This document shows positions 3,412 to 42,365 of a DNA stretch of 48,195 bases, piece by piece. Location of the stretch: the IMG/VR virus record IMGVR_UViG_2519899780_000006; one strand, given 5' to 3'. A model generated the notes under the pieces. The model saw only the letters and a program-made list of their open reading frames with translations, did not search any database and was not told the origin of the DNA. A program made the translations under genes and the position numbers. The stretch comes from a virus. Taxonomy: Duplodnaviria; Heunggongvirae; Uroviricota; Caudoviricetes. Position 1 is the first letter of the stretch, and each line of letters opens with the position of its first letter.

Positions 3412-3438
3412 TGTCATAACACTGAGTTGCCTGGCTAA

Positions 3439-7579: not shown

Positions 7580-7682
7580 TACATCACCTCTTACCGTGAT
7601 AATTGTTCACTCACAAAAACAACAGGCACCTCACCGGGTGCCTGCGTCATGACGGAATAAAATTTCTGAATATCTTCACATT

Positions 7683-7716: not shown

Positions 7717-7815
7717 GCGTTAGTGTTTTTTTGCCCGGGTAACCAAAACAACTCCTTAACATTAATCTTCATTTGTCTGTCCCCGCAGCTCCGCGATCAC
7801 TGCGGGATTTTTTTA
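7717..7815 (+). ncRNA. Candidate small RNA in the I-J gap (possibly AgvB-like anti-sRNA)
   Basis: About 100 nt between the promoter above and a hairpin cccgcag...ctgcggg (7782-7806) plus U-run (7808-7814). No ATG or RBS. Body is C/A-rich (AACCAAAACAACUCCUUAACAUUAAUC). Confidence 0.3.
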
Positions 7816-7819
7816 TGTT

Positions 7820-8500
7820 TTATCCCTGTCGACCAATAACCACCACCTTTCCGCCCCCGCCTTCATCACGGGTGCTGATGTCCTGAGAGATACGTCGTGA
7901 ACCAACCAGCATTTCACCGTAGGGCACCGGCATCGGGTTGCCCTGGGCAATCATGTTGTCCAGTGAGGAAAAGTACGTGTTCTGTTTACCGTTATCCGTT
8001 GCGCGGTAATCCGGTGTTTTTGCCTTCGGGGCCAGCATCTGGGCCACACCGCCCAGAATCATACTGGCACCCAGTGAAAACAGCATCGTGGTGGCAGAAA
8101 AACCACCGGCACTCAGGGCTGTACCCCATAACGCCATCGAGCCTCCGGCCGTGAAGAAAGAGCCCACGATGGCTGCCGCCCCCAGCACAATCTGCAGTCC
8201 GCCCTTTCCGGCACCGGCCAGTCGCGGCACAATGTGGATGACCGTTCCCTCACCCAGCTGTTCGTGAAGGCGGGCATACACCGCCTCCGGTGCCGTGTCC
8301 TCACCGGCAATACGTATCTGGTACCAGCCTTCGTTCATCTGACGGCGGAATCCGGGCACCTGTAACGACAGCGCCCGGATGGCTTCCGCTGCCGTGTTCA
8401 CATACAGGCTGAGGCGGCGGCCAAATCGTTGTAAATCCCCGTGAAGGCAGATGCGTGCCAGTGGCGGTGACGCCAGACAGAATGCGTTCGTCGTTGCCAT
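7820..8500 (-). CDS. I: Tail assembly protein I
   Basis: 226 aa, lambda gpI-like with Gly/Ala-rich hydrophobic core; overlaps K 3' end as in lambda. Confidence 0.85.
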   Translation of the reverse strand: MATTNAFCLASPPLARICLHGDLQRFGRRLSLYVNTAAEAIRALSLQVPGFRRQMNEGWYQIRIAGEDTAPEAVYARLHEQLGEGTVIHIVPRLAGAGKGGLQIVLGAAAIVGSFFTAGGSMALWGTALSAGGFSATTMLFSLGASMILGGVAQMLAPKAKTPDYRATDNGKQNTYFSSLDNMIAQGNPMPVPYGEMLVGSRRISQDISTRDEGGGGKVVVIGRQG

Positions 8501-17624: not shown

Positions 17625-19130
17625 TCATGGCATGGCCATGAGCATTTTCACGTCCGCATCACCGTCTGCTGACGTCTGTGACACGCCACCCCGCACCGCT
17701 GCCGGTGAATGATTCGCCATGAAATGTTCAAACAGGGCAGTTGTGGATGCAGAGACCGGTTCTGCTTTATCCGGCGATGAGGACAGAATGTCGCGGGCAG
17801 CCTCCACCGTCATTCCGGGAAACGCCGCCAGTTTTTCAGCCTGCGCCTCAGCCCCTTTTGCCTCATCCAGAGCCATAATCTGATCACGGAGTGAGGGTCC
17901 GGCATCCGCCTGCGGTGAAGCCGCCAGGATCGGGCGGGCTTTTTCCACCGTCATCTCCGGCATCGCCGCCAGCGTTGCCGCCAGTTGTTCACGACCTTTA
18001 GCCTCTTCACACGCCATAATGCGATCGGCTTCACTCTGCGTGGATGCCACCGGCTGCTGTGGTGCTGCCGCGGTCAGAATCGCCCGGGCCTGTTCAACGC
18101 TCATGCCCTGTTGTCCTGCCAGCATCGTGGCAAGGTGTTCACGTCCTTTCGCTTCCTGACACGTCAGGATCCCCATCACTCGCTGGTTCTCCTGCGCGGC
18201 AGCTTCCGTTGCAGTTAATTGCGGCATAGTGCCTCCTGTATCATGTGTGTTCAGCGCCGCAGCCATCACGCTGATGGCATCCGACGCATTGATTAATTCA
18301 TCCGCCAGCCCGGCCTCAATGCCGGACTGACCTTCAAAAACGGCGGCCTCTGTTCCCGTGACTGCATCAACAGACAGACCGGTATACATCGCCACTTTTT
18401 CGGCAAACATCCGGCGCGCCGCATCAATCCGCTGCTGCATGTCCTGGCGAACCTCTTCCGGCAACGCTTCAAACTGATTGCCATCCACCTTGTGCGCCCC
18501 TGAGTAAATCAGCGTGATATCCACACCGGCCTGCGCCAGATGACCGGCATAGCTGACATGGCTCATCATCACGCCAATGGAGCCGATACGGGATGTCTGG
18601 GTAACCAGCCGTCGGGAGCAGGCCGACGCCAGCAGCATGGCTGCAGAACAGGCCGTGTCATTGCACAGTGCCCAGACCGGCTTCTGCTGACGGAGGCGGT
18701 AAATCATGTCAGCACAGTCAAACGCACCGGCGGCCTGCCCGCCCGGACTGTCAATGTCCAGCAGTACGCCCCGCACCTGGCTATCCGCCATTGCCTGCTG
18801 AAGACAGGCGACAATGCCGTCATAGCCTGTCATTCCGGAAAATGGCCGCATACCCCCCAGCCGGTGCACCAGCGTGCCTGTCACCGGCAGTACAGCAATA
18901 CCGTTCACCACCCGGTAAACACGGGCCGGTCGTTTACCTCCGGCCATGTACTCGTCCGTTTCAGCCAGCATTCCGGGTGCATCAAGCTGTACCTGCTGTT
19001 GTGGTACCGAAAGACTTGCTGCCCCCATCTCGCGCCCGAGCGCGCAAAAGAAAACCCGCGCATAGGCGGGCTCCAGAAGCAGCGGTTCATTGAATGCTGC
19101 TGCAATAATGTGTGAAAGATTACGTCTCAC
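17625..19130 (-). CDS. C: Prohead protease C (S49/ClpP-like) with nested Nu3-like scaffold region
   Basis: 501 aa; N-terminal S49-peptidase-like region; C-terminal Ala-rich region with three tandem repeats of about 47-50 aa. Confidence 0.85.
   Translation of the reverse strand: MRRNLSHIIAAAFNEPLLLEPAYARVFFCALGREMGAASLSVPQQQVQLDAPGMLAETDEYMAGGKRPARVYRVVNGIAVLPVTGTLVHRLGGMRPFSGMTGYDGIVACLQQAMADSQVRGVLLDIDSPGGQAAGAFDCADMIYRLRQQKPVWALCNDTACSAAMLLASACSRRLVTQTSRIGSIGVMMSHVSYAGHLAQAGVDITLIYSGAHKVDGNQFEALPEEVRQDMQQRIDAARRMFAEKVAMYTGLSVDAVTGTEAAVFEGQSGIEAGLADELINASDAISVMAAALNTHDTGGTMPQLTATEAAAQENQRVMGILTCQEAKGREHLATMLAGQQGMSVEQARAILTAAAPQQPVASTQSEADRIMACEEAKGREQLAATLAAMPEMTVEKARPILAASPQADAGPSLRDQIMALDEAKGAEAQAEKLAAFPGMTVEAARDILSSSPDKAEPVSASTTALFEHFMANHSPAAVRGGVSQTSADGDADVKMLMAMP
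17760..18230 (-). repeat. Three tandem in-frame repeats of about 140-150 bp in the scaffold part of C
   Basis: Protein repeats IMxxxEAKGxExLAxxLAxxPxMTVExARxIL three times; DNA units begin near 17858, 17997 and 18147. Confidence 0.5.
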
Positions 19131-20712
19131 GTGGTGTTGTCTCCTCTTCCGGCCTGCGACTCTCCGCTATCTGCTGCTGATACGCCTGCGCTATCCACAC
19201 CGGACGTGAGAGTCCGGCTTTTTCCCGCTCTGCAGATTCCCTGACCTGCTGGCGGAAAATGTCCTGATAATCCTCGCCCATCAGCGCCAGCTCTTTCTCA
19301 TACGTGCTCAGTCCGGAATCAATACGCATCACCGATTCCTGAACCTCCTTGAGCCCGTCAATGGCCATTCTTCCGGCACCAATCCACTCAGCCCGTGACC
19401 AGGCTGAACGCGCCTGATAAAAATCAAAACGTGCCCGTGGCGGACGAATAATCCCCCGAAGAAGTGCCTCTTCCAGCCAGCAGGAAAACATCTGCGTGGC
19501 CAGCCGGGACGCAATAAATTTTCGCCGCCCCATAAAATAGCGCCACGACTCATTGGCGGAGGCGCGGGCACTTGAATAACTGACCTTCGAGTAATCACGG
19601 GACAACTGTTCGTAGGAAACGCCAAGACCGGCGGCGATATACCGCAGCAGCGCCTGTTCAAGCGCCGAAAATCCATTGTCTGAATCCTGCGCGGTCTGAA
19701 GTTTCAGATCATCACCGGGGAAAAGGTGCGGAATTTTGACACCGCCCAGCGTCACGCTATTCGTGTCATACCAGGTGGAGAACTTATCCAGAATATTAAT
19801 AAGCGGATTATCCTTCTGCCCCTGCGGCGCACCGGCGATATATTCAAAGGCCTTTTCGGTATCAAGGTCACTTTCAATCGTCGCTGCATACATCGCCTTC
19901 ACTATGGCCGACTGAAGCTGTGTTGCCTGCAGGGAATCCAGCATCTTCAGCCGTTCCATAACGCTGTAAAACTGATTGGCTCCACGGGTCTGCCCGTCCT
20001 CCACCGGCTCGAAAATATGCAGCATGGCCGGACGCCCGGTGGGAAGTTCACGCGGGATCCGTTCCCATCGTCCACTCCCGGAGCGAGGAAAATCATCCTC
20101 ACAGATATGGTACGCAACGGCACGGCCATATCGATCAACCTCCACACCGGCCCGCAGAAAACGGTTCCCGATACCGTGTCCTGGCGTGTCCACCCGTTTC
20201 GGACTCACGGCTTTAAAACGCGTACGAAACAGTTGCGTGCTCTCCGTATCCCAGACCGGCTGCACAAAGATTTCGCCGTTAAACGCATGAACGCCCACAC
20301 CTTCACGGATAAATTCCGTAAACGTGCGTTTCCCTTCCACGTCGATCTCACCAAACATCCCTTCTGCGTATTCTGACCAGGCCGCCTCCACCTCATCGAC
20401 AAAACTTTTTGCCGCGGTCTCCCGCATCCCCAGCCAGCGCCAGTTCGGACGGTAGCTAATCAGAAACATATGCCCGACAATGTGATCCTTATGCAGGGCC
20501 ACCGCATTGGCCGCTATTCCGTTATTGCGCACCAGATCATCTGCCCGGGCATTCCCCAGACGCAACGCGGGCAGCAGGGCCGCATCGGCACTCTGCGCCG
20601 GTGGCAACCACTCAGCCATTTGCCCGCCAAATCCTGCACCGCCCCCGTTGTAGCTGAGACTATCACGAAGCGGAACGCCGTTCACATCAATCAGGACAGG
20701 CGTTCGTTTCAT
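19120..20712 (-). CDS. B: Portal protein B
   Basis: 530 aa, lambda gpB length; between W and C. Confidence 0.9.
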   Translation of the reverse strand: MKRTPVLIDVNGVPLRDSLSYNGGGAGFGGQMAEWLPPAQSADAALLPALRLGNARADDLVRNNGIAANAVALHKDHIVGHMFLISYRPNWRWLGMRETAAKSFVDEVEAAWSEYAEGMFGEIDVEGKRTFTEFIREGVGVHAFNGEIFVQPVWDTESTQLFRTRFKAVSPKRVDTPGHGIGNRFLRAGVEVDRYGRAVAYHICEDDFPRSGSGRWERIPRELPTGRPAMLHIFEPVEDGQTRGANQFYSVMERLKMLDSLQATQLQSAIVKAMYAATIESDLDTEKAFEYIAGAPQGQKDNPLINILDKFSTWYDTNSVTLGGVKIPHLFPGDDLKLQTAQDSDNGFSALEQALLRYIAAGLGVSYEQLSRDYSKVSYSSARASANESWRYFMGRRKFIASRLATQMFSCWLEEALLRGIIRPPRARFDFYQARSAWSRAEWIGAGRMAIDGLKEVQESVMRIDSGLSTYEKELALMGEDYQDIFRQQVRESAEREKAGLSRPVWIAQAYQQQIAESRRPEEETTPRET

Positions 20713-24518: not shown

Positions 24519-24986
24519 TTATTTCAGGCACTGAGTGCGGATATAGTCCTGTGCCCCTTCCAGTTGCTTCTGCATCGTCATCAGCCGCTCTCTGAGGGTG
24601 AAATAATCCCGTGTAACGGTGTCTGCCAGTTGGGGGCCGGTTGCATTATCCACGCGGGCGGTGCCGGTGGCTTCACGCACGGGACCTGGACAGGTGGCGT
24701 TGATCCGCAGGCTGCGGTGACCAGCGGCAACGTCAGCGCGAAGAGTTTCATTTTCAGCTCTCGCATCGGCTAATTCCCTCGAGTATCTGGCATCAAGTGC
24801 AGCAACATCACGCTGGCGCTGCTGCATATCAGTAATGGTTGCATTTGCCAGCTCCAGCTCACTGACTTTTTTATCGCGCTGCTCTTTGTAGGTTATGGCG
24901 TTATCACGGTAATGATTCAGCCCCAGACTAAGCGCACCACAGGCCACCAGCAGGGCAATGATGACCACGCACAGTACGCGGTTCAT
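24519..24986 (-). CDS. Rz: Spanin inner-membrane subunit Rz
   Basis: 155 aa; N-terminal TM helix then NHYRDNAITYKEQRDKK and C-terminal FTLRERLMTMQKQLEGAQDYI, matching lambda Rz as recalled. Confidence 0.9.
   Translation of the reverse strand: MNRVLCVVIIALLVACGALSLGLNHYRDNAITYKEQRDKKVSELELANATITDMQQRQRDVAALDARYSRELADARAENETLRADVAAGHRSLRINATCPGPVREATGTARVDNATGPQLADTVTRDYFTLRERLMTMQKQLEGAQDYIRTQCLK
24581..24751 (-). CDS. Rz1: Spanin outer-membrane lipoprotein Rz1 (embedded in Rz)
   Basis: Embedded +1-frame ORF; start taken at MKLFALTLPLVTAAC (lipobox), followed by Pro-rich CVKPPAPPAWIMQP. Confidence 0.8.
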   Translation of the reverse strand: MKLFALTLPLVTAACGSTPPVQVPCVKPPAPPAWIMQPAPNWQTPLHGIISPSESG

Positions 24987-24987
24987 T

Positions 24988-25086
24988 TCACCACCAGCGT
25001 ATCTGACCGATGAAATAACCGGAGGCCATAATCACAAACACCAGCCAGATAAGAATGAACTTCCAGGTGGATAATTTTTCAGCCAT
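24988..25086 (-). CDS. Candidate 32-aa single-TM micro-protein translationally coupled to Rz
   Basis: MAEKLSTWKFILIWLVFVIMASGYFIGQIRWW; its TGA stop overlaps the Rz start (TGAAATG). Not in the ORF track because it is under 60 aa. Confidence 0.25.
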   Translation of the reverse strand: MAEKLSTWKFILIWLVFVIMASGYFIGQIRWW

Positions 25087-25156
25087 CACTCGAATCTCCC
25101 GAATCAGTTTGCTAAAATCAAACACACTTTCTCCTTTGACTTTTCCAGAGTCAGGA

Positions 25157-25196
25157 AACACAAAACCCCGCTTGCAGCCAACAAACGGGGTTTTTA
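25157..25196. terminator. Bidirectional terminator-like hairpin between R and Rz
   Basis: ccccg...cgggg stem (25166-25190) with a T-run after it on the plus strand and a U-rich tract after it on the minus strand. Confidence 0.4.
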
Positions 25197-25284
25197 CTTT
25201 TATTCACTTAGTTTTTGTCAGTTCGCAGGATTTCGTGTTATCCGTCCGTGTGAGCAAACCGCATTTTTCAGCAAAATATTCTGC

Positions 25285-25818
25285 TTATCTGTCAATTCCC
25301 CAGCACGCCAGCGCACTCTCCTGGTCGCGACGGGATACCTGACCGTAACAGTTGTTTGAGCGAATACGGCAGTCTCTGCCACCGTCCTTAATCCACCAGC
25401 GAATCGCCTCACACGCCCCCCTGCGATCGCCTGCATTAATTCGTTTATAAAACGTCGACGGGAAACACTTACCGGGACCAATGTTGTACGGACAGAATGA
25501 CGCGATCCCCGCTTTCTGGGGTTCGGTCAGTGGCACTCTGATGTTTTTCTCCACCCACGCCAGCGCTTTATCACGCTCAATGGCGTTAACCTGGTCGCAT
25601 TTTTCCTTCGACAACTTCATGCCCGGAACGACAGGTTTGCCATCCACCATGATGGCACCACGGCAGATGGTCCAGATACCTGCACCATCACGGTATGCCG
25701 TGGTGTGATTGCCTTCCTTTTCATCCAGAAACTGGTCGAGAATGTCAGGCGCAGGCGCACCAGCGGCAATCAGCGCCAGAACGGCAGCCGACAGGCCGTA
25801 TTTGATTTTGGTGTTCAT
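25285..25818 (-). CDS. R: SAR endolysin (T4-lysozyme-like muramidase, GH24)
   Basis: 177 aa; weakly hydrophobic Gly/Ala-rich N-terminus (YGLSAAVLALIAAGAPAP); catalytic E-x8-D-x5-T spacing (EGNHTTAYRDGAGIWT). Confidence 0.85.
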   Translation of the reverse strand: MNTKIKYGLSAAVLALIAAGAPAPDILDQFLDEKEGNHTTAYRDGAGIWTICRGAIMVDGKPVVPGMKLSKEKCDQVNAIERDKALAWVEKNIRVPLTEPQKAGIASFCPYNIGPGKCFPSTFYKRINAGDRRGACEAIRWWIKDGGRDCRIRSNNCYGQVSRRDQESALACWGIDR

Positions 25819-25860
25819 GGATATTTATCAGGATTTATCGGCAACAGATAACGAGCCAGC

Positions 25861-26667
25861 TTATATACGTCCTTTAAGATAAGTCAGTCCTGGATGAAAC
25901 CAGTAAGCCGGCACTTTTTTAAAGGGCGGATTATCAAAATCACGAAGAAGAGCCTCCCGCACAACTGCATCCTTGTCCGCACCACTGGCCAGCGCTTCAA
26001 TCTCAGCAGCTATCTGCAGATATCCCATGCAACGGCCAATGCGCTTCATCAGCCCCTGCTTTTTATTGTTCTTCAGGTAATCAATGGCAAATTCAATGAG
26101 CGCCTCACTATGCTGGTGCGATGGCGGTGTTAATTTCCCATTTTCTGAGATGGTTATTTTCCCGCCATCTCCGTATACAACAAAGGATGGCCGGTTACAC
26201 TCCCATTCCTGATCTTTATCAGGTGCAGACGCAATAAAATAACGTTTATTTCCTTCCTCTCCGGCACTTTTAACCGTAATGGAGTACTCAGACTGCAGAC
26301 AAGACGCCTCTTTTTCTGACCGCAGTGTTGACGGCGGCATCTTCAGAGAACCAGTAATTCTTCCCGGTAGCTTTCCTTTGTAGGTTATCAACACATCCTG
26401 CGCCTCTAAAATTATGGGGCGCTTTTCCGGCAACGGTTCGTTCCCTTCACATAACCCGGCAGCAACATCCATGAAAAACTGCTTCGCCTGCTTTTTCGCC
26501 TCAGCTTCGTAAAACTCCAGCGTGGCACCTTCAGTACGGTCAAGACTAATCGCCACATCTGGCAACAACAGTGACGGATACCCACCAATTTCCAGTGCCA
26601 CAGTAACAGTAATCTTATCCGGATAATTATTTATCCCTTTAACACCCAGTTCGTATTTTTTCTTCAT
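25861..26667 (-). CDS. Hypothetical 268-aa protein inserted between holin and endolysin
   Basis: Intact ORF with GGGGGAG RBS directly after the S stop; lower GC than flanks; no TM segment or signal peptide; no motif I recognise. Confidence 0.6.
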   Translation of the reverse strand: MKKKYELGVKGINNYPDKITVTVALEIGGYPSLLLPDVAISLDRTEGATLEFYEAEAKKQAKQFFMDVAAGLCEGNEPLPEKRPIILEAQDVLITYKGKLPGRITGSLKMPPSTLRSEKEASCLQSEYSITVKSAGEEGNKRYFIASAPDKDQEWECNRPSFVVYGDGGKITISENGKLTPPSHQHSEALIEFAIDYLKNNKKQGLMKRIGRCMGYLQIAAEIEALASGADKDAVVREALLRDFDNPPFKKVPAYWFHPGLTYLKGRI

Positions 26668-26671
26668 CGCT

Positions 26672-26887
26672 TTACTCCCCCCGCGCCGCCTTACGACGGT
26701 CCTCTCTGATTTTGAAATACAGGTTAGTCAGATATGTCAGCAGCCCAAACAGCAGACTCCCCAGCACGCCTATTGCCGCCCACTGAGACGGGGAAACCCT
26801 GTCCAGCAACTGCAGGAACCAGTAGCCCGTTCCCACCGCTGACGTGGTGTATGACACACCTGTTGTGATTTTTTCCATCTGGTACAT
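26672..26887 (-). CDS. S: Class II holin, phage 21 S21-type pinholin
   Basis: 71 aa from dual-start motif MYQM (ATG 26885-26887); [50 protein letters not shown] matches S21 as recalled. The ORF track extends it upstream to 26965. Confidence 0.85.
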
Positions 26888-26919: not shown

Positions 26920-26952
26920 AATAAAAAAAGCCACCAGTTAAGTACTGATGGC
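26920..26952 (-). terminator. Terminator-like hairpin upstream of S
   Basis: Imperfect 9-bp stem (26930-26952) followed on the minus strand by UUUUUUUAUUG. Confidence 0.35.
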
Positions 26953-27037
26953 TCTGATAACTCATGCAGGCATCTCAGACGACCCACTGACACTACCGGT
27001 GAGTTTAACGATACCTTCCATTTGACTGGCTCACTTT

Positions 27038-28891
27038 TTATGATGATGCCGGTGCATTTATCTCCAGCACCAGACTTTCTATCTCAACGCCATACGCTGC
27101 ATTTTTGGTAATATCCGTCAGCGTCAGCGCATTCAGCCCCAGTGTCAGACTGTCTTTTATGACCTGGAATGCCGGGCCAGCCACTCCATTCAGTTTCGGA
27201 GTAACCGTGGCACTGCCGGCGGTGAACACCAGCTCCAGCGTCTGCCAGTCGTTACTGTAATTCCCGAACTCGCCCAACTTTGTGTTTCCGGCTTTCTTGT
27301 GATGCATCAGATTCAGTTTGCCGTCTGTGGTCTGGGTGAAGAACGACATCAGGAACGGGTTACCAGTCCCGGTCATCGCCACGACGTCAGGTAACGCTAC
27401 ATCGGTATACAGATAAATTCCCAGACCGAACTGGTTGTTGGTCAGTGCGCCTGACAGTCGAAACTTACAGCTCAGTCTGCCACCCCGTGTCAGCAGGGAG
27501 ACTGCGTCATCCACCGGGCGCGTCAGGGACCAGGCTTTATTGCTCTGCTTGGTGATCTTAAATACACCATCTGACAACTGAATTCCGCCATTCTTAATGC
27601 TCCAGCCCTGCGCAGCAGCATCTCCGGCTGTCGGCAACAGGGAGATTGTGCGTACGGATGCATCTTCAGACGGCCCCGATGGCGTGTCGACGCCGGGCGA
27701 GGGTTTGATTTCCGGTGCCTTACCACTGATGAAGGCTGAGGTGCGCCCGGCTGCGTTCAGAATAGCGGTTGCCATACGATCCGGAATAATGCTCCTGCGC
27801 GCCCATGAACTGAAATGTGTCGGGCGGTTTGATGATACCTGGTTTCCATTCGTTCTCGATGCCGCACCGTAATATCCTGATGCCGGAATATCCGGATCTT
27901 CTGCCGGTGCGTTAGTGGCGGTATTGACGCCGTTACCGTCTGTCATGAAGGGCACAAAATAAACGCCCTCACTCTCCCTGTTTTTATACCCTCCGTACAC
28001 GGTGTCGTACTGGGTAGCGTATGTATTTTTCCAGTAATACGTCGTGTCACCACAAATCCACGGTACAACTGCAGCACTGCCGCCATGGCACTGCGCGTTA
28101 AATCCGGAAAGGTCAGTACGGAACTGCTTCAGCATGGCCGTGAACAGGTCCGGTTGCTGTGCGTAGGTGGCAGCGCTCATGTCAAATTCGCCCTGCATCC
28201 AGCACACCGCCAGCAACACATTTTTCGGGTTCTTCTGTAATGCAGCTTTAGTGCGCGCAATCAGGTCCTGATATAGCGGTTTACCCACACCCCAGCGTGC
28301 CGAATCCTGGCTGGCCCCCGCGTCCGCACTGAATGTCCCCTCCGCGCCCTGGGTGAATGCCGAACCACCACGACAGCATGGTACCAGCAGGATCCCAGCG
28401 TTATTCGGGATATACGGGAGCAGTTTTTTGGCAATATGTAAGCCCTGGCCGACACAGCCGTACTGCCCTTTGCTCAGGTCTGCCTTCGGATGATTCAGCG
28501 TACTCATATCCTGCACATCATGCAGACAGTGGTCAGCCGGGATGATGTCGTTATACGTACAACTCTCTCCCCCCGGAGTTACCGTGCTGCGGCGCGCCAG
28601 CTGTTTAATGCGCGGATCCGGAGCATCGTAAGAATCCGGTAACGGAAGCCCTTCACCGTAGGCCATGCCGTTGGACTGTCCGGCAAGCACAACCACGTAG
28701 AACCAGTCCGGCTCAGATGAAGGGCCGACCTGTGGATCTCCTTCAATAGCCACCGCCTGCATCAGTGTGTACGGCGTAATGGCAACCGGTCCGCCATATG
28801 GCTGCCAGCCCTCTTTCAGTTTGTGTGTCAGCTTTTCCGCAAGGTCTGACGGCGACGCCGCCCTGACAACATCATAGTGTTTAAATGCCAT
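27038..28891 (-). CDS. NanS-like sialate O-acetylesterase (SGNH hydrolase)
   Basis: 617 aa; GQSN motif (VLAGQSNGMAYG); occupies the slot between the tRNA cluster and S where Stx phages carry this esterase. Confidence 0.75.
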   Translation of the reverse strand: MAFKHYDVVRAASPSDLAEKLTHKLKEGWQPYGGPVAITPYTLMQAVAIEGDPQVGPSSEPDWFYVVVLAGQSNGMAYGEGLPLPDSYDAPDPRIKQLARRSTVTPGGESCTYNDIIPADHCLHDVQDMSTLNHPKADLSKGQYGCVGQGLHIAKKLLPYIPNNAGILLVPCCRGGSAFTQGAEGTFSADAGASQDSARWGVGKPLYQDLIARTKAALQKNPKNVLLAVCWMQGEFDMSAATYAQQPDLFTAMLKQFRTDLSGFNAQCHGGSAAVVPWICGDTTYYWKNTYATQYDTVYGGYKNRESEGVYFVPFMTDGNGVNTATNAPAEDPDIPASGYYGAASRTNGNQVSSNRPTHFSSWARRSIIPDRMATAILNAAGRTSAFISGKAPEIKPSPGVDTPSGPSEDASVRTISLLPTAGDAAAQGWSIKNGGIQLSDGVFKITKQSNKAWSLTRPVDDAVSLLTRGGRLSCKFRLSGALTNNQFGLGIYLYTDVALPDVVAMTGTGNPFLMSFFTQTTDGKLNLMHHKKAGNTKLGEFGNYSNDWQTLELVFTAGSATVTPKLNGVAGPAFQVIKDSLTLGLNALTLTDITKNAAYGVEIESLVLEINAPASS

Positions 28892-29044
28892 GAATCCTCC
28901 CGGCCGGGATAATATTGTGAGTAAAATGAGGAGCGGGCTGAAGTCCGGAAGTTACAGGACAATGGCAGAAGAGAGACAACAGCCCGCAATACGAAAAAGG
29001 CCGCGCTATTGCGCAGAGTGATTACTGTCGGATATTATTCGCCA

Positions 29045-29114
29045 GCTGAAATATTACTTCACGTTTTGTTGTTTATTCCTTGCCGCCCGCGTCTCCCAGC
29101 GCGGGCTTTTTTTT
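29045..29114 (+). ncRNA. Speculative small RNA of about 70 nt
   Basis: Possible promoter TTGCGC (29009-29014), 18-nt spacer, TATTAT (29033-29038), then the terminator above; G/U-rich body. Confidence 0.2.
29085..29114 (+). terminator. Plus-strand intrinsic terminator with no upstream plus-strand gene
   Basis: 7-bp GC stem gcccgcg / cgcgggc followed by TTTTTTTT (29107-29114). Confidence 0.45.
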
Positions 29115-29341
29115 GTCCATAAGAAAGCCCCTCCGGAGAGGGGCTGGAGAGTGGCGCTATGTGCCATTGCATGGTGCCGGGTGCCTCCCGGTGAATTCAG
29201 TACCAGCACCTGAATCCGCGATTATCCCATATACCTACTCGCTGATTGCCCCTCCGCACAGGGGGATTCACCATGCCAGTTTCTTTTAACAAACTCCCCG
29301 CAAAACAGACAACTGTCAACCGTCTGAATTGTGAGACATTT

Positions 29342-29367
29342 AAAAAAAAGGCCCGCAAAAGCGAGCC
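29342..29367 (-). terminator. Intrinsic terminator after the tRNA cluster
   Basis: Hairpin GGCUCGC UUUU GCGGGCC followed by an 8-U run on the minus strand. Confidence 0.45.
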
Positions 29368-29381
29368 AGGGAAAATAAGTG

Positions 29382-29458
29382 TGGCGCGTTGTACTGGATT
29401 CGAACCAGTGACCGATTGCTTAGAAGGCAATTGCTCTGTCCGGCTGAGCTAACAACGC
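29382..29458 (-). tRNA. argO: tRNA-Arg (anticodon UCU)
   Basis: 77-nt cloverleaf folded by hand: acceptor GCGTTGT/ACAACGC, D stem GCTC/GAGC, anticodon loop CUUCUAA, T loop TTCGAAT, 3' CCA encoded. Confidence 0.85.
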
Positions 29459-29474
29459 AGGATACAGATAATGA

Positions 29475-29548
29475 ACCGCCTTCGGGGACCCGAACTCCGC
29501 GCAACCAGCTTCGAAGGCTGGCGCTCTATCCTGATGAGCTAATGGCGG
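29475..29548 (-). tRNA. argN: tRNA-Arg (anticodon UCG), slightly imperfect
   Basis: About 74 nt; anticodon loop CUUCGAA; T loop TTCGGGT; one mismatch each in acceptor and T stems; no encoded CCA. Ends approximate. Confidence 0.6.
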
Positions 29549-29555
29549 TATGTGA

Positions 29556-29631
29556 TGGTGGCCCTTGCTGGATTTGAACCAGCGACCTGGCGATTATGAG
29601 TCGCTCGCTCTCACCACTGAGCTAAAGGGCC
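29556..29631 (-). tRNA. ileZ: tRNA-Ile2 (anticodon CAU), ileX/ileZ-like
   Basis: 76 nt reading GGCCCTTTAGCTCAGTGGTGAGAGCGAGCGACTCATAATCGC...CCACCA, close to E. coli ileX as recalled. Confidence 0.85.
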
Positions 29632-29680
29632 GGGAGCAGAATAATAATGGTGCGTAATTAATTCTGCAATCTCATCCGTT

Positions 29681-30730
29681 TCAAACGATTAAATCCTGAA
29701 CTTCCCTGACTGTCTGCTCAAAACGTCCTGTCTCCAGTTCAACGCCAATCGCACGACGCCCGAGCGCCAGTGCCGCTTTTACCGTTGAACCCGACCCCAT
29801 GAAAAAATCCGCAACCAGATCACCAGGACGACTACTTGCGCTGATTATCTGCTGCAGCATTTCTGCCGGTTTTTCGCACGGATGTTTCCCGGGATAGAAC
29901 TGCACCGGTTTATGTGTCCACACATCCGTGTACGGCACCTGCGCCGTCACACCAAAATACCGCCGCAGATGTTTATATTCACTCTGCAGCTCCGCATACT
30001 GTCGGTTCAGTGAAGTATACGTATCCACCAGCTGGTGGTGGGGCTTTTCCAGTTCCCCCCGCTGATGCTTCTCTTCTGCCACCCTGGCAAACAGTGCCTG
30101 TAATTTCAGATAATCGCTTTCGTTCGGCAACTGCCACTGACTGGCACTGAACCAGTGCGACACCATGTTTTTCTTTCCTGTGGCATCTGCAATCTGTTTT
30201 GCCGTTATCCCAAGAGCAGCACGCGCATCACGAAAGTAAGAAATCAGCGGGGCCATCACATGCTGTTTCAGTGCCCTGCCCTTCGCCTCATCGCCATCAT
30301 CTTTCGGACGATACGGCCCCTGATAATGTTCCGCGAACAGAATGCGTTCTGTGGCCGGAAAATACGCCCGCAGGCTTTCCTTGTTGCACCCGTTCCAGCG
30401 TCCGGACGGCTTCGCCCAGATAATATGGTTCAGCACACTGAAGCGTTCACGCATCATGATTTCGATATCAGATGCCAGGCGATGACCACAGAACAGGTAA
30501 AGACTTCCGGCAGGTTTCAGCACCCGCCAGAACTGCGCCAGACACTGGTCCAGCCACTTCAGGTAATCATCGTCGCCCTTCCACTGGTTATCCCAGCCCT
30601 CAGGCTTCACTTTAAAGTACGGCGGGTCCGTAACTATCAGGTCAACAGAATTTTCGGGTAACGACCGGATAAATTCCAGGCAGTCGGCGTTGATTAACTC
30701 ACAACTGGATATTTTTACAGTATTAAGCAT
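29681..30730 (-). CDS. DNA methyltransferase, beta-class N6A/N4C (DPPY family)
   Basis: 349 aa; motif IV LIVTDPPYF near the N-terminus and motif I DFFMGSGSTV near the C-terminus. Confidence 0.8.
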   Translation of the reverse strand: MLNTVKISSCELINADCLEFIRSLPENSVDLIVTDPPYFKVKPEGWDNQWKGDDDYLKWLDQCLAQFWRVLKPAGSLYLFCGHRLASDIEIMMRERFSVLNHIIWAKPSGRWNGCNKESLRAYFPATERILFAEHYQGPYRPKDDGDEAKGRALKQHVMAPLISYFRDARAALGITAKQIADATGKKNMVSHWFSASQWQLPNESDYLKLQALFARVAEEKHQRGELEKPHHQLVDTYTSLNRQYAELQSEYKHLRRYFGVTAQVPYTDVWTHKPVQFYPGKHPCEKPAEMLQQIISASSRPGDLVADFFMGSGSTVKAALALGRRAIGVELETGRFEQTVREVQDLIV

Positions 30731-30865
30731 GGATCATTAAGCCTGTCTCTGATAGGCTCATTCTGCTTTTGCGTAAAGCAGTGGGCCTGAGGTTTGCTTG
30801 TGAACCCAACGCATGAGCAGATGGCTGGTGGGTGCCCCTAACACCCACCAGCCGCCCATTTACCA

Positions 30866-30894
30866 CAAATAAAAAAGCCTTCACTGCGGAAGGC
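30866..30894 (-). terminator. Intrinsic terminator at the end of the small post-Q ORF
   Basis: Hairpin gccttc...gaaggc (30877-30894) followed on the minus strand by UUUUUUAUUU. Confidence 0.4.
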
Positions 30895-31078
30895 GTCTGT
30901 AACAACCGAACTGATAGTCTGCCAGACCCGCCATAACCAGCTGGGTCAGTATTAACTGGCAGCGTTCGCGTGAAAGGTAAGTATTCTGCGCAATCTCCCC
31001 GACTGTCGCCGGGTCGGTAACGCTTAATTCATTAAACACCACTCTGGCGGTTTCTGTCATATCCTGCTGTTTTAGCAT
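30881..31078 (-). CDS. Hypothetical small protein
   Basis: 65 aa from ATG 31076-31078 (MLKQQDMTETARVV...); lies between two terminators downstream of Q. The ORF track gives a longer version from 31165. Confidence 0.3.
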   Translation of the reverse strand: MLKQQDMTETARVVFNELSVTDPATVGEIAQNTYLSRERCQLILTQLVMAGLADYQFGCYRRLPQ

Positions 31079-31198
31079 GTCTTTTTCCCTTTTCCGGTTA
31101 ACGTGACACACCAATAACTCTTGTCGAAAAAGCCAGCAAGCTGAAAGACAGGTATTCACCGCCACCAGCGCGTTTACTGTACTGACGCGATTTCAGTC

Positions 31199-31223
31199 AT
31201 AAAAAACCCGCCAGGCGGCGGGG
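31199..31223 (-). terminator. Candidate tR' terminator downstream of Q
   Basis: Hairpin CCCGCC GCCU GGCGGG followed by UUUUUU on the minus strand, about 80 nt after the Q stop. Confidence 0.45.
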
Positions 31224-31271
31224 TGTAAAAAATCTTCTAACGTCAGGCATAAAACGCCCATCGTTAGAGCA

Positions 31272-31299
31272 AATTTACCACAGATTCGGGAAAAATCAA
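31272..31299 (-). promoter_or_regulatory. Candidate late promoter pR'
   Basis: On the minus strand TTGATT (31294-31299), 16-nt spacer, TAAATT (31272-31277), immediately after the Q stop and before the hairpin above. Confidence 0.3.
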
Positions 31300-31304
31300 C
31301 AACA

Positions 31305-32126
31305 CTATCGCGTTACCCTCTTTAACTGCCGCTCCGCCCATGCCTCTTCAATGTCAAACCGAACCACCAACGTATCGTAAAAGCGTTTCACTGATTTTTT
31401 CCACGTATCAAGCGTGATAGCACTCGTCACTTTGCATATGGCATTAAATGCCTCCGTTGATGGTAGTCTTTCACAGCCACGACCACCACAACGCTGGCAG
31501 TCTCTGATAACAGGCATACCACGTTTTACCGACTCTTCACGATGAATGGCGACACCACGCCCACGGCAATCCTTACAGGCGGTGGAAACCTCACCCTTTC
31601 CGCCACACTCCGGACAGGCAACTTTTACCACCTCCCTGACTTTTTTCCATTCTTCCCAGTAAGACGGATACACACCTTTCGTACACTTTGCCCATACCGG
31701 CGGCTTACCATCCGGATACTGGATCTTGTTTGTAAAAACCTCGCTTTCAATAAATTTTTTTCCGTGACAGCAGGAGCACTGTTTTTTGCTCGCCGCGCTA
31801 CGGGCATAATCTTCAAACGCATACGAAGCCATAATACGCATCACTGCCGGTTTTATTTCTGCCGGGAGTTTTCTTAACGCCGCCACGCGATCACACCGCC
31901 TGAGTGCATATTCTGTCAGCAATTCTGTTGCCCGCTCTCTGTCATTCATACTAATGCCCATTTTCCCAAGGAACGCAGAAAACCCCATCTCAGCCCGATT
32001 CTGTGTCATGCCCTGCGCGGCCATCACATCAGTGATACTCAGCGCATCTTTCGACGTTGAGGCCGATGCATCAGTCAGGCCGGGGGATTTTGGGGAGTAG
32101 TATTTCGGTAAATCTTCCAGTTTCAT
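31305..32126 (-). CDS. Q: Late antiterminator, Q-like
   Basis: 273 aa with several CxxC pairs; sits upstream of the pR'/tR' candidates, the tRNA cluster and the lysis genes. Confidence 0.65.
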   Translation of the reverse strand: MKLEDLPKYYSPKSPGLTDASASTSKDALSITDVMAAQGMTQNRAEMGFSAFLGKMGISMNDRERATELLTEYALRRCDRVAALRKLPAEIKPAVMRIMASYAFEDYARSAASKKQCSCCHGKKFIESEVFTNKIQYPDGKPPVWAKCTKGVYPSYWEEWKKVREVVKVACPECGGKGEVSTACKDCRGRGVAIHREESVKRGMPVIRDCQRCGGRGCERLPSTEAFNAICKVTSAITLDTWKKSVKRFYDTLVVRFDIEEAWAERQLKRVTR

Positions 32127-32497
32127 TTTTTGACCTGCCCTTCAAGCATTATGGGGTAAATCTTCACCCCCAGACGTCCACCAGATACTGGCTGACCACG
32201 AACGATATTGATTTCATCAAACTGCTCATCGTCCATTAACACTCCCGCATGCGTCAGCGCATCCAGCGGTGCTTTCAGGATATTGTCCAGGTCGCGACGA
32301 CGCTTATCCGGTGGCTCTGCAATCACCTTTATCGCCAGCCTTCCGGACAGGCTTAATTTCAGCCGCTGCTGGCGAACAATAAGCGCCACAGCCCGGCGAT
32401 AACGCTTTCCCTCCTCCGAGATAAAATATGTGCTGCCACGGCGTCGCCAGTAAGTGTTCACCGTCGGCGGGTAAGGTAAAACCAAATCTATGAGCAT
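32123..32497 (-). CDS. rusA: Holliday junction resolvase RusA
   Basis: 124 aa, MLIDLVLPYPPTVNTYW...DLDNILKAPLDALTHAGVLMDDEQ, RusA family as recalled; directly upstream of Q. Confidence 0.85.
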   Translation of the reverse strand: MLIDLVLPYPPTVNTYWRRRGSTYFISEEGKRYRRAVALIVRQQRLKLSLSGRLAIKVIAEPPDKRRRDLDNILKAPLDALTHAGVLMDDEQFDEINIVRGQPVSGGRLGVKIYPIMLEGQVKK

Positions 32498-32509
32498 CAG
32501 TCACCTCTT

Positions 32510-33559
32510 TTACCCAAGCACGCCAGTTGCAAAGGCGTGATCAAGAAAACGAAAAATTAAATCAACCTGAGAACCATGCTTTTCTTCGAACGCCAGCGGA
32601 TCCGCATGAAGCTCGTTGTGATGCTCCCGACACAGCGGTAGCGTGAAAATATCGTGAGATTTTGTCCCCATTCCGCCCTGACCATGACCAATCAGGTGAT
32701 GGGGATCGTCGGCTGGCTTACCACAACACGCACACGGCTGTGTCTTCACCCAGCGTGTGTATTTCTCGTTAACCCAGCGGCGACGTTTAGGTCGTTTCAT
32801 GAAAGATTCCGGAGACTCAGGATCAACGGCAATGCTGACCACCGTCTTTTCCTGTGGTGGGTTCTGTTGCTGGTGGGCGTGAGGCAGCGGCGCAAGATTT
32901 TTTGTGCGCTGTTTCAGTATGCTGGTGGCGGTCTGCTCTCCCGGTACGATGTCGCTTTCACGGTACATTGAGCGGATTTTTTCCGCACGCAACCCCAGCG
33001 AACGACGTAATACCGCTTCCGGTAGCGCGTCCGCCACCTGATTGCGGACCGCCCACCAGGATAATTCAGCCAGCGATAATTCCCGTTCCTGCGAGCCATT
33101 CATTGCATGGCGTATGACGTCAATCATCCATGCAGACAGGTTTTGGTGAGCAAGTTGCCCGAGTGATTCGGATGTCTGGTCGCGCAGCTGGTTGTCGCAG
33201 TGCCAGCACAACACCATTGCGCCGGTACCATAACGGTGAATGACGGTTTCACTGTGGTGATAATCACCGTGTGGCCACTGGCAGGATTTAACATGGCGCA
33301 GTAACCAGTCAGACAATGCGCCAGCGCCACCAGCAGCACGAATCACTCGTTCGTCGCTGAAAAATGGCAGTAATGATTTATCCTCCGCCAGCGGCTGGCG
33401 AACGGCAGGAACGACCCCGGACGGCAGATTACGCATGCTTTTCGGTTCCGGCTCCACCAGTACCCGGGTATTGTGGAATACCGGCATGGATTCACGGCCC
33501 GGCTTAACGATCACCAGCCCGAGTTCCGGTACCAGAACAGGTCGAAGTAATACCCGCAC
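32510..33559 (-). CDS. Prophage protein with C-terminal Cys/His (HNH-like) motif, possibly DUF968/YdfU-like
   Basis: 349 aa; C-terminal CACCGKPADDPHHLIGHGQGG...CREHHNELH. Confidence 0.55.
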   Translation of the reverse strand: MRVLLRPVLVPELGLVIVKPGRESMPVFHNTRVLVEPEPKSMRNLPSGVVPAVRQPLAEDKSLLPFFSDERVIRAAGGAGALSDWLLRHVKSCQWPHGDYHHSETVIHRYGTGAMVLCWHCDNQLRDQTSESLGQLAHQNLSAWMIDVIRHAMNGSQERELSLAELSWWAVRNQVADALPEAVLRRSLGLRAEKIRSMYRESDIVPGEQTATSILKQRTKNLAPLPHAHQQQNPPQEKTVVSIAVDPESPESFMKRPKRRRWVNEKYTRWVKTQPCACCGKPADDPHHLIGHGQGGMGTKSHDIFTLPLCREHHNELHADPLAFEEKHGSQVDLIFRFLDHAFATGVLG

Positions 33560-34006: not shown

Positions 34007-34162
34007 TTACTCCTCAGGTTCGTAAGCTGTGAAGACAGCGACCTCCGTCTGGCCGGTTCGGATTCGTACCTCGCAGAGGTCTTTCCTCGTTACCAGTGCC
34101 GTCACTATGACGGTTAAACAGATGACGATCAGGGCGATTAACATCGCCTTTTGCTGCTTCAT
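34007..34162 (-). CDS. hokD: Hok/Gef-family type I toxin
   Basis: 51-aa ORF MKQQKAMLIALIVICLTVIVTALVTRKDLCEVRIRTGQTEVAVFTAYEPEE, hand-translated; absent from the ORF track (under 60 aa); matches HokD/RelF as recalled. Confidence 0.85.
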   Translation of the reverse strand: MKQQKAMLIALIVICLTVIVTALVTRKDLCEVRIRTGQTEVAVFTAYEPEE

Positions 34163-41869: not shown

Positions 41870-42061
41870 ATGAGTACAGCCCTTTCCCCGATAATTTCTG
41901 AATTTGAAACAGTCGAACAAGAAAACAGCTATAACGAATGGTTGCGAACCAAAGTGGCAGCAAGCCTCTCAGATCCCCGTCCTGCAATTCCACATGACGA
42001 AGTAATGGCTGAAATGGAAAACCTTATTGCTCAATTAGCTGCAACGAACAGGAGTGAGTAA
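41870..42061 (+). CDS. Antitoxin, PaaA2-like
   Basis: 63 aa acidic protein immediately upstream of and overlapping the ParE-like toxin gene. Confidence 0.65.
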   Translation: MSTALSPIISEFETVEQENSYNEWLRTKVAASLSDPRPAIPHDEVMAEMENLIAQLAATNRSE

Positions 42062-42351
42062 TGCTGCCCATTTTATGGCTACCTTCTGCACGTGATGATT
42101 TACGTCAGATCGTAGCCTATATTGCTAAGGAAAACCCTCCCGCTGCACGTAGACTAAAAATACGCATTGAAACATCAGTTTTGTCACTTACTGAACACCC
42201 TTATCTGTACCCACCGAGCGAAAGAGTTCCAAGTCTTCGTGAGATAGTGACTCATCCTAACTACATAATACTTTACCGAGTAACAGCATCTAACATCGAG
42301 ATCGTAAATGTAGTTCACTCACGAAGACAGTATCCAAACAAAACCTGTTAA
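42061..42351 (+). CDS. ParE/RelE-superfamily toxin (ParE2-like)
   Basis: 96 aa; EHPYLYPPSERVPSLREIVTHPNYIILYRV matches the ParE family as recalled; ATGA-coupled to the antitoxin. Confidence 0.7.
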   Translation: MLPILWLPSARDDLRQIVAYIAKENPPAARRLKIRIETSVLSLTEHPYLYPPSERVPSLREIVTHPNYIILYRVTASNIEIVNVVHSRRQYPNKTC

Positions 42352-42365
42352 TCCTTCCTGTCAAC

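Follow-up and report, generated by a model that had tools for sequence, protein, structure and literature searches.

What stands in a prophage at the place where Shiga toxin genes would normally be found? The question is raised by positions 28892-29381 of a DNA stretch of 48,195 nucleotides ("the window", by which the whole stretch is meant). A first-pass annotation, made from the sequence alone, saw here a late region of the Stx-phage type with tRNA genes and an esterase gene and nothing of the toxin, and offered two views of it: a toxin-negative relative of the Stx phages, or a site from which cargo had been lost. The analysis given here points to the first. The leader of this late region is very probably a toxin-free allele of the Stx2-phage scaffold, which carries a tRNA cluster and a convergent pair of Hfq-binding sRNAs, and whose cargo slot is unoccupied.

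The window is a lambdoid prophage, 99.95% identical to a prophage of the O104:H4-related strain FDAARGOS_401. Its late region is built from the following parts.

31305-32126, minus strand: Q late antiterminator, 273 aa (Pfam PF03589 Antiterm, E 1.5e-49; PGAP "antitermination protein")
31200-31299, minus strand: putative pR'-like promoter (inferred) and tR'-like intrinsic terminator (terminator scan)
30881-31078, minus strand: small ORF, 65 aa (PGAP hypothetical protein)
29681-30730, minus strand: DNA methyltransferase, N6/N4 type, 349 aa (Pfam PF01555 N6_N4_Mtase, E 5.8e-44)
29641-29669, minus strand: putative sigma-70-like promoter of the tRNA cluster, TTGCAG-17 nt-TATTAT (read from the sequence)
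29556-29631, minus strand: tRNA with anticodon CAT, ileZ type, probably tRNA-Ile2 (ARAGORN; Rfam tRNA, 72.5 bits)
29473-29549, minus strand: tRNA-Arg with anticodon UCG, argN type (ARAGORN)
29382-29458, minus strand: tRNA-Arg with anticodon UCU, argO type, reading AGA/AGG (ARAGORN; Rfam, 70.1 bits)
29342-29367, minus strand: intrinsic terminator ending the tRNA cluster, 7-bp stem and T8 (terminator scan)
27038-28891, minus strand: NanS-p-type prophage sialate O-acetylesterase, 617 aa (Pfam PF08410, PF03629, PF20350; PGAP "SASA family carbohydrate esterase")
24519-26887, minus strand: lysis cassette (PGAP annotation of the 99.95% identical record)
26672-26887, minus strand: holin (Pfam PF04971)
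25285-25818, minus strand: lysozyme (PGAP)
24519-24986, minus strand: Rz-type lysis protein (PGAP)

Read along the minus strand, the order is Q, DNA methyltransferase, probable tRNA-Ile2(CAU), tRNA-Arg(UCG), tRNA-Arg(UCU), a 490-bp interval, the NanS-p-type esterase, holin, lysozyme and Rz. The layout that had been proposed (Q, pR'/tR', tRNAs, esterase, S-R-Rz) is therefore real, but the 65-aa ORF and the methyltransferase intervene between Q/tR' and the tRNAs. The ORF had no match in a Pfam search; it is found in the Stx2a phage Stx2_EH1910 as well, and Stx2 phages have a DNA methyltransferase at the position equivalent to that in the window. The methyltransferase does not appear in the first-pass annotation.

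Both promoters in this list are putative. The pR'-like element (TTGATT-16 nt-TGgTAAATT, 31299-31272) was read by eye, and the tRNA-cluster promoter scores under the threshold of the promoter scan. The tR'-like terminator was returned by the terminator scan, with a stem at 31222-31207 followed by a T run, and it is exactly at 31222 that the homology of phage PhiR5_1, which has a different Q, to the window begins. In the 99.95% identical record, PGAP annotates a frameshifted portal gene and, within the lysis cassette, a truncated YdfR-family gene. The prophage may be partly defective, and its late transcription may therefore be of little weight.

The esterase, with its DUF1737, SASA and DUF6645 domains and its gene upstream of the holin gene, would by these features belong to the NanS-p enzymes; it is homologous to yjhS/nanS-p of Stx phages. 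Genes for nanS-p are, according to the literature, found in both Stx and non-Stx prophages, with five functional copies in O104:H4.

How close, then, is this locus to that of a phage that carries the toxin? Q, ileZ-argN-argO, nanS-p and S-R-Rz stand in the order of the Stx-phage scaffold, and 29341-32600 aligns with Stx2_EH1910 at 93.75% DNA identity, the Q region of the window being matched at that level by the quuQ region of the phage. Thus, the arrangement is indeed related to Stx-phage late regions. In Stx2_EH1910, stx2A and stx2B lie between the tRNAs and yjhS/nanS-p, where the first-pass annotation had expected them. More generally, the Stx2 phages (933W/Sp5 type, Stx2_EH1910, Stx2_EC3283) run Q-tRNAs-stx2AB-STnc100(EcOnc27)/AsxR-nanS-p-lysis, and the literature places STnc100/EcOnc27 directly downstream of stx2B. 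Upstream of the slot they are 90-94% identical to the window. Like the window, they continue with an STnc100-family sRNA, then nanS-p, then a P21-type holin; unlike it, they contain a stx2AB block, and their downstream identity to it is only 70-86%. The place of that block can be given to the base.

29339-29340, no strand assigned: cargo slot, 2 bp replaced by a 1332-bp stx2AB block in Stx2 phages (blastn breakpoints)

Here, the breakpoints at window positions 29338/29341 correspond to 4956/6289 in locus L005 and to 5147/6480 in locus L003. Both sides of the slot are homologous to Stx2 phages, and stx2AB, from its promoter to its 3' UTR, forms a clean 1332-bp indel against 2 bp. The terminator of the tRNA cluster is kept in Stx2 phages, directly upstream of the stx2 cassette. 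In PhiR5_1, homology to the window stops at 29346.

The toxin itself is absent, as had been claimed. Searches with Stx2A and Stx2B (tblastn) and with the 1332-bp cassette (blastn) gave chance matches only in the window (best E 0.05-0.75) and none in the interval. The arrangement that defines a Stx-converting phage, stxA and stxB between Q/tRNAs and nanS-p, is not found, the slot having 2 bp only. Remnants of stx in 28892-29381 were rejected on the same chance-level results; hidden coding cargo was rejected too, the six ORFs of 43-77 aa that overlap the interval being without a Pfam match at E <=1. With homologous flanks and a slot exactly where stx2AB lies, the locus is a toxin-negative relative of the Stx2-phage late region.

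The first-pass annotation described the interval as about 490 bp with only terminator-like hairpins. Its size and its hairpins are as described, but the hairpins terminate the tRNA cluster and two convergent sRNA genes. Thus, to judge from its sequence, this is no empty spacer, since two sRNA genes of known, Hfq-binding types lie in it.

29115-29305, minus strand: STnc100-family sRNA, EcOnc05 type (Rfam RF02076, 139.2 bits, E 1.6e-31)
28932-29113, plus strand: Hfq-dependent sRNA, EcOnc08/21/42 type, 182 nt, convergent with STnc100 (near-identity to an EPEC RIL-seq sRNA)
28885-28913, plus strand: promoter-like site for the plus-strand sRNA, ATGCCA-17 nt-GATAAT, function inferred (promoter scan)

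The covariance match to STnc100 is full length (model positions 1-206 of 206; gathering score 47), and the terminator scan places its terminator at 29145-29126. RNAalifold, applied to six homologues, predicts 37 pairs, and compensatory changes occur in 5 of these; the z-score of the sequence on its own reaches only -1.72. The start of this RNA is less sharply drawn. No -10 element stands at a usable distance from TTGACA near 29314, a conserved TGtTAAAAG near 29291-29283 is a candidate extended -10, and family members, at 177-247 nt on northern blots, are longer than the stretch between the best -10-like element and the terminator. A pseudogene for a "hypothetical protein" that PGAP places at 29161-29286 runs antisense within the STnc100 match and is probably spurious.

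The plus-strand sRNA shares 180 of 182 bases (98.9%) with the EPEC sRNA E2348C_1409.E2348C_1408.IGR, including the CCUUGCC seed (29078-29084) and the terminator, which the scan finds as a stem at 29085-29106 followed by U8. The target motif reported for the EPEC sRNA, GGCAAGG, is complementary to that seed (PMC8550237 Table S6), and its RIL-seq partners include cfa, dppA and tir (PMC8550237). The promoter-like site, the only one returned by the promoter scan, overlaps the esterase start codon on the opposite strand; the 5' end estimated by RNA-seq in EPEC, when carried over to the window, falls 19 nt downstream of it.

Convergent partners of another kind are known, of course. The AgvB/AsxR/EcOnc03 anti-sRNAs are RNAs of 51-60 nt with a conserved 3' region of about 42 nt, and in Sp5 the partner is the 54-nt AsxR, compared with the 182-nt EcOnc08-type RNA of the window. 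Rfam models of AgvB and AsxR (RF02702, RF02703) had no match in the interval at E up to 10 (AgvB was detected in locus L002, a control), and blastn-short with AsxR and AgvB gave only an 11-nt chance match outside the interval. An anti-sRNA of this type was therefore rejected, and the EcOnc08/21/42 type is preferred. Probes for PasA, PasC and PasD likewise had no match in the window (blastn-short). PasD1/PasD2 and EcOnc13 are prophage sRNAs upstream of a sialate esterase gene, structurally related to STnc100 (Zhu, Shabalina and Storz 2026 preprint); the window copy is STnc100 proper, not PasD.

The arrangement has already been described: for O157 Sakai (Sp4) and for EPEC, both the sequence of the toxin-free allele and a map of its transcripts are available. 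Prophage Sp4 (ileZ1-argN1-argO1 / EcOnc05-EcOnc08/21 / ECs_1088) has the same toxin-free order, with three tRNAs, a 489-bp interval and the esterase. It is 98% identical to the window overall and 99.2% (485/489) in the interval, its argO1-ECs_1088 spacer, where each of the two northern probes has an exact match (Tree et al. 2014, PMC4104026). The Hfq-CRAC peaks of Sp4 and the probes (PMC4104026 Table S2) can thus be placed on the window: EcOnc05 at 29244-29136, with its probe at 29213-29247; EcOnc08 and EcOnc21 at 29039-29111 and 28948-29033, with a probe at 29005-29039. The Sp4 copy of EcOnc05 is an RNA of about 222 nt, bound by Hfq in Hfq-CRAC (PMC4104026). By transfer from this 99% identical locus, the minus-strand RNA of the window would also be expressed and Hfq-bound; expression, Hfq binding and targets of the plus-strand RNA would be transferred from the O157 Sakai and EPEC E2348/69 loci. 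Sakai prophages Sp3, 4, 5, 9, 10, 11, 15 and 17 have been reported to carry convergent pairs of sRNAs at the moron site 3' of pR' (PMC7873438).

These relatives are not the same throughout. In Sp4, a CAAX protease and an AraC-type regulator take the place of the methyltransferase upstream of the tRNAs, and Q is different. Phage Nil3 (AM051322, from a bovine O157:H7 isolate, Egypt) is also toxin-free, with Q-tRNA-Ile-tRNA-Arg-tRNA-Arg followed directly by a window-type interval that is 98.9% identical over 444 bp, the record stopping inside the interval; Rfam detects STnc100 there. It differs in a lambda-like Q (435 bp) and in having no methyltransferase between Q and the tRNAs. Prophage PP6 of EPEC E2348/69 has the esterase at the same place (Pearl Mizrahi et al. 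2021, PMC8550237), but ISEc13 interrupts its STnc100 copy in the 5' part, and it lacks argN.

How might such a leader work? Along the minus strand it runs from Q through the putative pR'/tR', the small ORF and the methyltransferase to ileZ-argN-argO with their terminator, then to the sRNA pair, nanS-p and lysis; in Stx2 phages, the stx2AB block stands after the tRNA terminator and before the sRNA module, a place unoccupied in the window. In a lysogen, the tRNAs and both sRNAs would be transcribed from their own promoters and end at their own terminators, and the sRNAs would act on host mRNAs via Hfq. After induction, Q-modified RNA polymerase would pass all terminators into nanS-p and the lysis genes.

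What, then, are the tRNAs for? The first-pass annotation suggested that they support late-gene translation, and one may go further and hold that the cluster is retained mainly for translating the phage's own late genes. The cluster lies within the late transcript, after all, and two of its members are 100% conserved. The window ileZ is identical to the copies in the sampled Stx2-phage loci, Nil3, Sp4 and E2348/69; argO is identical in Stx2_EH1910, Nil3 and Sp4, and one base different in Stx2_EC3283. The gene with anticodon CAT, called Met by ARAGORN, is tRNA-Ile for PGAP and ileZ1 in the Sakai annotation. The CAU anticodon of tRNA-Ile2 decodes AUA after lysidine modification. Codon usage fits the suggestion in part: the late structural genes use AGA and AGG about twice as often as is typical of E. 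coli, and in the lysis and esterase genes these two codons are more frequent still (8.9 and 5.9 per 1000). However, the late structural genes use AUA (5.3 per 1000) and CGA (3.7 per 1000) at roughly the rate of the host, the codons are commoner in early than in late genes (all four, at 13.3, 9.4, 6.3 and 5.6 per 1000), and the major capsid and decoration genes, with 455 codons, have 2 ATA, 1 AGA, 0 AGG and 0 CGA. The stx2A gene fits the tRNA set far better (ATA 47, AGA 19 per 1000). Support of late translation is thus a weak idea, and retention mainly for that purpose, with argN weakened in the window and absent from E2348/69, is doubtful, at perhaps one chance in a few.

The state of argN invites a further thought. 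Its Rfam score is 43.7 bits, and that of the gene in Stx2 phages 54.8. Set beside the Stx2-phage allele, the window copy shows A7.A66 and A52.C62 mismatches and a TTCGGGT T-loop, and it reads TCA where that allele encodes CCA. By this predicted fold, it is a structurally weakened allele. Over the 75 positions that align, Sp4 argN has 2 differences from it; the alignment stops just short of the encoded CCA, which in the window is TCA. No phage record is more than 93.4% identical to the window argN. Perhaps the CGA-reading argN is decaying specifically in toxin-free lineages, which would link its upkeep to carriage of stx; in the limited set of papers searched, nothing was found on ileZ/argN/argO. 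A second such thought concerns the sRNAs. The putative plus-strand promoter overlaps the start codon of nanS-p and points against the late transcript, an arrangement that might make the sRNA pair a switch: both RNAs would be made in the lysogen and keep read-through from reaching nanS-p, until after induction Q-modified polymerase overrode them, its collisions silencing the plus-strand sRNA. These two proposals, judged together, we hold to be improbable.

The other view in the first-pass annotation, that cargo was lost here, may be put most sharply as descent from a Stx2 phage whose stx2AB was lost by a precise deletion, with the tRNA terminator on one side of it and the sRNA module on the other. 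Loss of stx from STEC strains is a known phenomenon and counts for this view. Further, both flanks are clearly homologous to Stx2 phages, and a 5-nt repeat, ATCTG, bounds the stx2 block at both ends in those phages and could mediate deletion; a repeat of that length is, however, expected by chance. Of the cassette, its promoter and its 3' UTR, no remnant is present. The low downstream identity given above also speaks against such descent, and no Stx-converting phage among the matches listed exceeds 85.8% over most of the interval.

Genome counts argue in the same direction. Among 5426 complete E. coli genomes, 1014 have the toxin-free junction, and the strains that bear it include EPEC, ExPEC and environmental ones. 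This junction is about twice as common as that from tRNA to stx2A (552 of the 5426); junction and interval are about 98-99% conserved over hundreds of genomes. A synthetic cassette-free join of the flank types of Stx2_EC3283 (the junction is identical in Stx2_EH1910) was found in 0 of the 5426, and stx2B never adjoins a close copy of the window flank, the best match to that synthetic junction being 88-90% in 6 genomes; both were megablast searches whose 60-nt half-queries came from a single Stx2 flank type, so that more divergent deletion products could escape them. A recent precise deletion was rejected on these two results. Since the joined flanks of the sampled Stx2a phage are not found and stx2B does not stand beside a close window flank, a long-standing toxin-free allele is favoured over recent loss, and descent from a Stx2 phage through such a deletion we consider very unlikely. 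The empty allele would then be an old independent lineage.

That the interval is inert spacer, its terminators merely insulating the esterase gene from the tRNAs, is scarcely credible: the 4 terminator-like hairpins in 490 bp (9 in the scanned 2.7-kb region, against 3.1 expected by chance) and ORFs that lack Pfam matches would suit it, but it is at odds with a full-length Rfam match at three times the gathering score, with the conservation of junction and interval, and with near-identity to two loci that make abundant Hfq-bound RNAs of defined size, northern-confirmed, from both strands.

The locus is, of course, the textbook "moron" slot downstream of pR' in lambdoid prophages, and carries little weight as a discovery. 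What the toxin-free allele adds is the base-precise placing of the stx2AB block relative to the tRNA terminator and the sRNA module, and a correction of annotation. An interval that seems empty, save for a PGAP pseudo "hypothetical protein", would encode two Hfq-dependent regulatory RNAs, which in other strains contact virulence and metabolic mRNAs.

The late region lies on the minus strand, and its gene order was taken from the annotation of a near-identical record, a prophage of E. coli strain FDAARGOS_401 (99.95% identity to the window), together with Pfam. A 1-kb test segment finds 100% matches in two other genomes as well, an O104:H4 strain among them.

Features of the late region, in minus-strand order
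First in the listed order, before Q, minus strand: RusA (annotation)
31305-32126, minus strand: Q (PF03589)
30881-31078, minus strand: 65-aa ORF between Q and the methyltransferase
29681-30730, minus strand: N6/N4 DNA methyltransferase (annotation and Pfam)
29556-29631, minus strand: tRNA with anticodon CAT (ARAGORN), annotated as tRNA-Ile (ileZ) by PGAP and in the Sakai genome
29473-29549, minus strand: tRNA-Arg, anticodon TCG (ARAGORN)
29382-29458, minus strand: tRNA-Arg, anticodon TCT (ARAGORN)
28892-29381: 490-bp interval between the three tRNAs and the esterase
27038-28891, minus strand: 617-aa esterase with the NanS-p architecture (DUF1737, SASA, DUF6645)
After the esterase, minus strand: P21-type holin, truncated YdfR-family gene, lysozyme, Rz-type lysis protein

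The ARAGORN tRNAs and this gene order therefore establish that the coordinates and gene list of the first-pass annotation were right, except that its order from Q to the tRNAs overlooked the methyltransferase and the small ORF between them. A strong minus-strand terminator hairpin (26927-26955, a 12-bp stem followed by T7) separates the esterase stop (27038) from the holin start (26887), at the position of PasA/PasC-type sRNAs in other prophages; PasA and PasC probes have no match there. The published northern probe for PasB, an EPEC prophage sRNA, matches exactly (23/23) at 7787-7809, in the gap between gpJ (4107-7580) and a tail assembly gene (7821-8402). As that probe has the sequence of the minus strand, any PasB homologue here would be encoded on the plus strand and run antisense to the tail genes. 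The 99.95% identical record has a frameshift in the portal gene (region 19121-20712) and a truncated YdfR-family gene in the holin-to-lysozyme gap (region 25861-26667), so the prophage is possibly defective. Two toxin modules adjoin the immunity region, a type I gene for HokD and a type II RelB/RelE toxin-antitoxin pair (34007-34162, 41871-42352).

A 6-kb query around the late region matched 389 phage records, mostly Stx-converting, and alignment confirms the homology: 29341-32600 is 93.75% identical to the Stx2a phage Stx2_EH1910, which is ordered rusA, Q, small ORF, methylase, three tRNAs, stx2A, stx2B, (iraM), yjhS/nanS-p, holin, endolysin. On the other side, two different Stx2a phages become homologous again from 29338. 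In place of exactly 2 bp (29339-29340), the Stx2 phages carry the stx2AB block. It is 1332 bp long in both Stx2a phages compared and consists of the two toxin genes with about 50 bp before stx2A and about 41 bp beyond stx2B. On one side it borders on the T-run of the terminator that closes the tRNA cluster (stem 29367-29350), on the other on TGTCTCACAATTCAG. The toxin-free phage PhiR5_1, with a different Q and without tRNAs, switches modules at 29346, a few bases from the slot, and this switch marks a mosaic boundary. The lack of toxin genes holds for remnants also: Stx2A and Stx2B (tblastn) and the whole cassette (blastn) gave chance-level matches only, whether the whole window or just the interval was searched.

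A slot without toxin genes might have lost its stx2AB cassette recently, or might belong to an allele that has long been toxin-free. A 121-nt query across the empty junction has nearly full-length matches in 1014 of 5426 complete E. coli genomes. Among these are O157:H7 strains, EPEC E2348/69, and isolates of human, meat and river-water origin; the tRNA-to-stx2A junction occurs in 552. A synthetic join of the Stx2_EC3283 flanks without the cassette occurs in none of the 5426 (Stx2_EC3283 and Stx2_EH1910 are identical at the junction), and for a synthetic sequence that joins stx2B to the window flank no close match turned up: the nearest, in six genomes, is 88-90% identical. Among the matches listed, no Stx-converting phage exceeds 85.8% identity over most of the interval, whereas toxin-free Nil3 reaches 98.9%. 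Together, these junction counts, synthetic-join negatives and flank identities mark the empty and filled alleles as distinct sequence lineages. A recent loss appears quite improbable, and a long-standing toxin-free allele is favoured with considerable confidence. The first-pass annotation had offered a toxin-negative relative or a site of cargo loss; the former stands, while the latter is disfavoured.

The tRNAs themselves differ in how closely they follow those of the Stx2 phages. In both Stx2 phages compared, the ileZ copy equals that of the window (100% identity). For argO this is true of Stx2_EH1910, while the Stx2_EC3283 copy has one base changed. The middle gene, tRNA-Arg(UCG) (29473-29549), is a divergent allele, 90.7% identical to the Stx2-phage allele, and its identity to phage records goes no higher than 93.4%. 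Its stems carry A7.A66 and A52.C62 mismatches, its T-loop is an unusual TTCGGGT, TCA replaces the encoded CCA, and the Rfam tRNA model gives it 43.7 bits, versus 54.8 for the Stx2-phage copies. Sakai prophage Sp4 has the altered stems and T-loop too but keeps the encoded CCA, and the EPEC E2348/69 copy of the locus lacks the gene. Judged from its sequence, this may be a decaying tRNA gene.

Codons per 1000
Late structural genes: ATA 5.3, AGA 4.5, AGG 3.0, CGA 3.7
Early genes: ATA 13.3, AGA 9.4, AGG 6.3, CGA 5.6
stx2A: ATA 47, AGA 19, AGG 6.3, CGA 6.3

Typical figures for E. coli are about 4-5 for ATA, 2-3 for AGA, 1-2 for AGG and 3.5 for CGA. The four codons are commoner in the early genes, and the capsid and decoration genes nearly avoid them. 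The proposal that the tRNAs serve the phage's own late genes is therefore weak; the set fits stx2A much better.

The interval was thought to contain only terminator-like hairpins. It holds instead a full-length STnc100 sRNA (RF02076; 29305-29115, minus strand; 139.2 bits in Rfam against a gathering score of 47, E 1.6e-31) and the gene of a convergent sRNA mapped in other strains, and the hairpin at 29145-29126, taken for a bare terminator, is the 3' end of STnc100. In five comparison loci Rfam places the family at this same point, including the two Stx2 phages, where it follows stx2B; for six homologues RNAalifold kept 37 pairs, five with compensatory changes. STnc100 overlaps EcOnc27/sRNA103, an Hfq-binding sRNA directly 3' of stx2B (PMC12711010, PMC12370729). 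A partial "hypothetical protein" pseudogene called by PGAP in the near-identical record (29161-29286, plus strand) lies antisense inside the STnc100 match, is without Pfam support, and is probably a spurious call. No ORF in the interval has a Pfam match.

Convergent sRNA pairs are known from Sakai prophages Sp3, 4, 5, 9, 10, 11, 15 and 17, at a "moron" site 3' of pR' (Tree et al., 2014; PMC7873438). Sp4 has the same toxin-free order (ileZ1-argN1-argO1, 489 bp, esterase ECs_1088), and its interval is identical to that of the window at 485 of 489 positions. The Hfq-CRAC peaks of Tree et al. were mapped onto the window.

Sakai Hfq-CRAC peaks in window coordinates
29244-29136, minus strand: EcOnc05 (northern ~222 nt)
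29039-29111, plus strand: EcOnc08 (northern ~271 nt; same RNA as EcOnc21)
28948-29033, plus strand: EcOnc21 (northern ~271 nt; same RNA as EcOnc08)

The published northern probes match the window exactly, that for EcOnc05 at 29213-29247 and that for EcOnc08/21/42 at 29005-29039. Independently, RIL-seq in EPEC E2348/69 defined a 182-nt sRNA, E2348C_1409.E2348C_1408.IGR, which its authors equate with EcOnc08/21/42 and whose partners include cfa, dppA and tir; it maps to 28932-29113, plus strand, and 180 of the 182 bases agree. Directly before the terminator (stem 29085-29106, then U8) stands CCUUGCC (29078-29084), complementary to the EPEC sRNA target motif GGCAAGG. The sole promoter-like site in the promoter scan, ATGCCA-17 nt-GATAAT (28885-28913, plus strand), lies 19 nt upstream of the EPEC-mapped 5' end and overlaps the opposite-strand esterase start codon. 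In EPEC prophage PP6 (NC_011601 1439456-1446573; locus 1778-3463), ISEc13 sits in the 5' part of the STnc100 copy, yet the plus-strand sRNA is intact. An AsxR/AgvB-type anti-sRNA was rejected as the partner RNA: neither Rfam nor blastn gave a match, although the search did pick up AgvB in a control locus.

In the lysogen, the tRNA cluster (candidate promoter TTGCAG-17 nt-TATTAT, 29669-29641) and the two sRNAs would form separate small transcription units, each with its own terminator. After induction, transcription would start at the pR'-like promoter (31299-31272), and a tR'-like terminator lies at 31222-31207. Q would render polymerase resistant to terminators and so let it cross the methyltransferase, tRNAs and sRNA module and reach nanS-p and the lysis genes. 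An extended -10-like motif, TGGTAAAT, occurs on the minus strand just after Q (31273-31280) and again just after the small ORF's terminator (~30859-30866); a second promoter may thus lie ahead of the methyltransferase and tRNAs.

The observation is real, and the structure is a common toxin-free allele that has been characterised before. The "empty" interval is an already known pair of sRNA genes, whose products would act on host mRNAs via Hfq.
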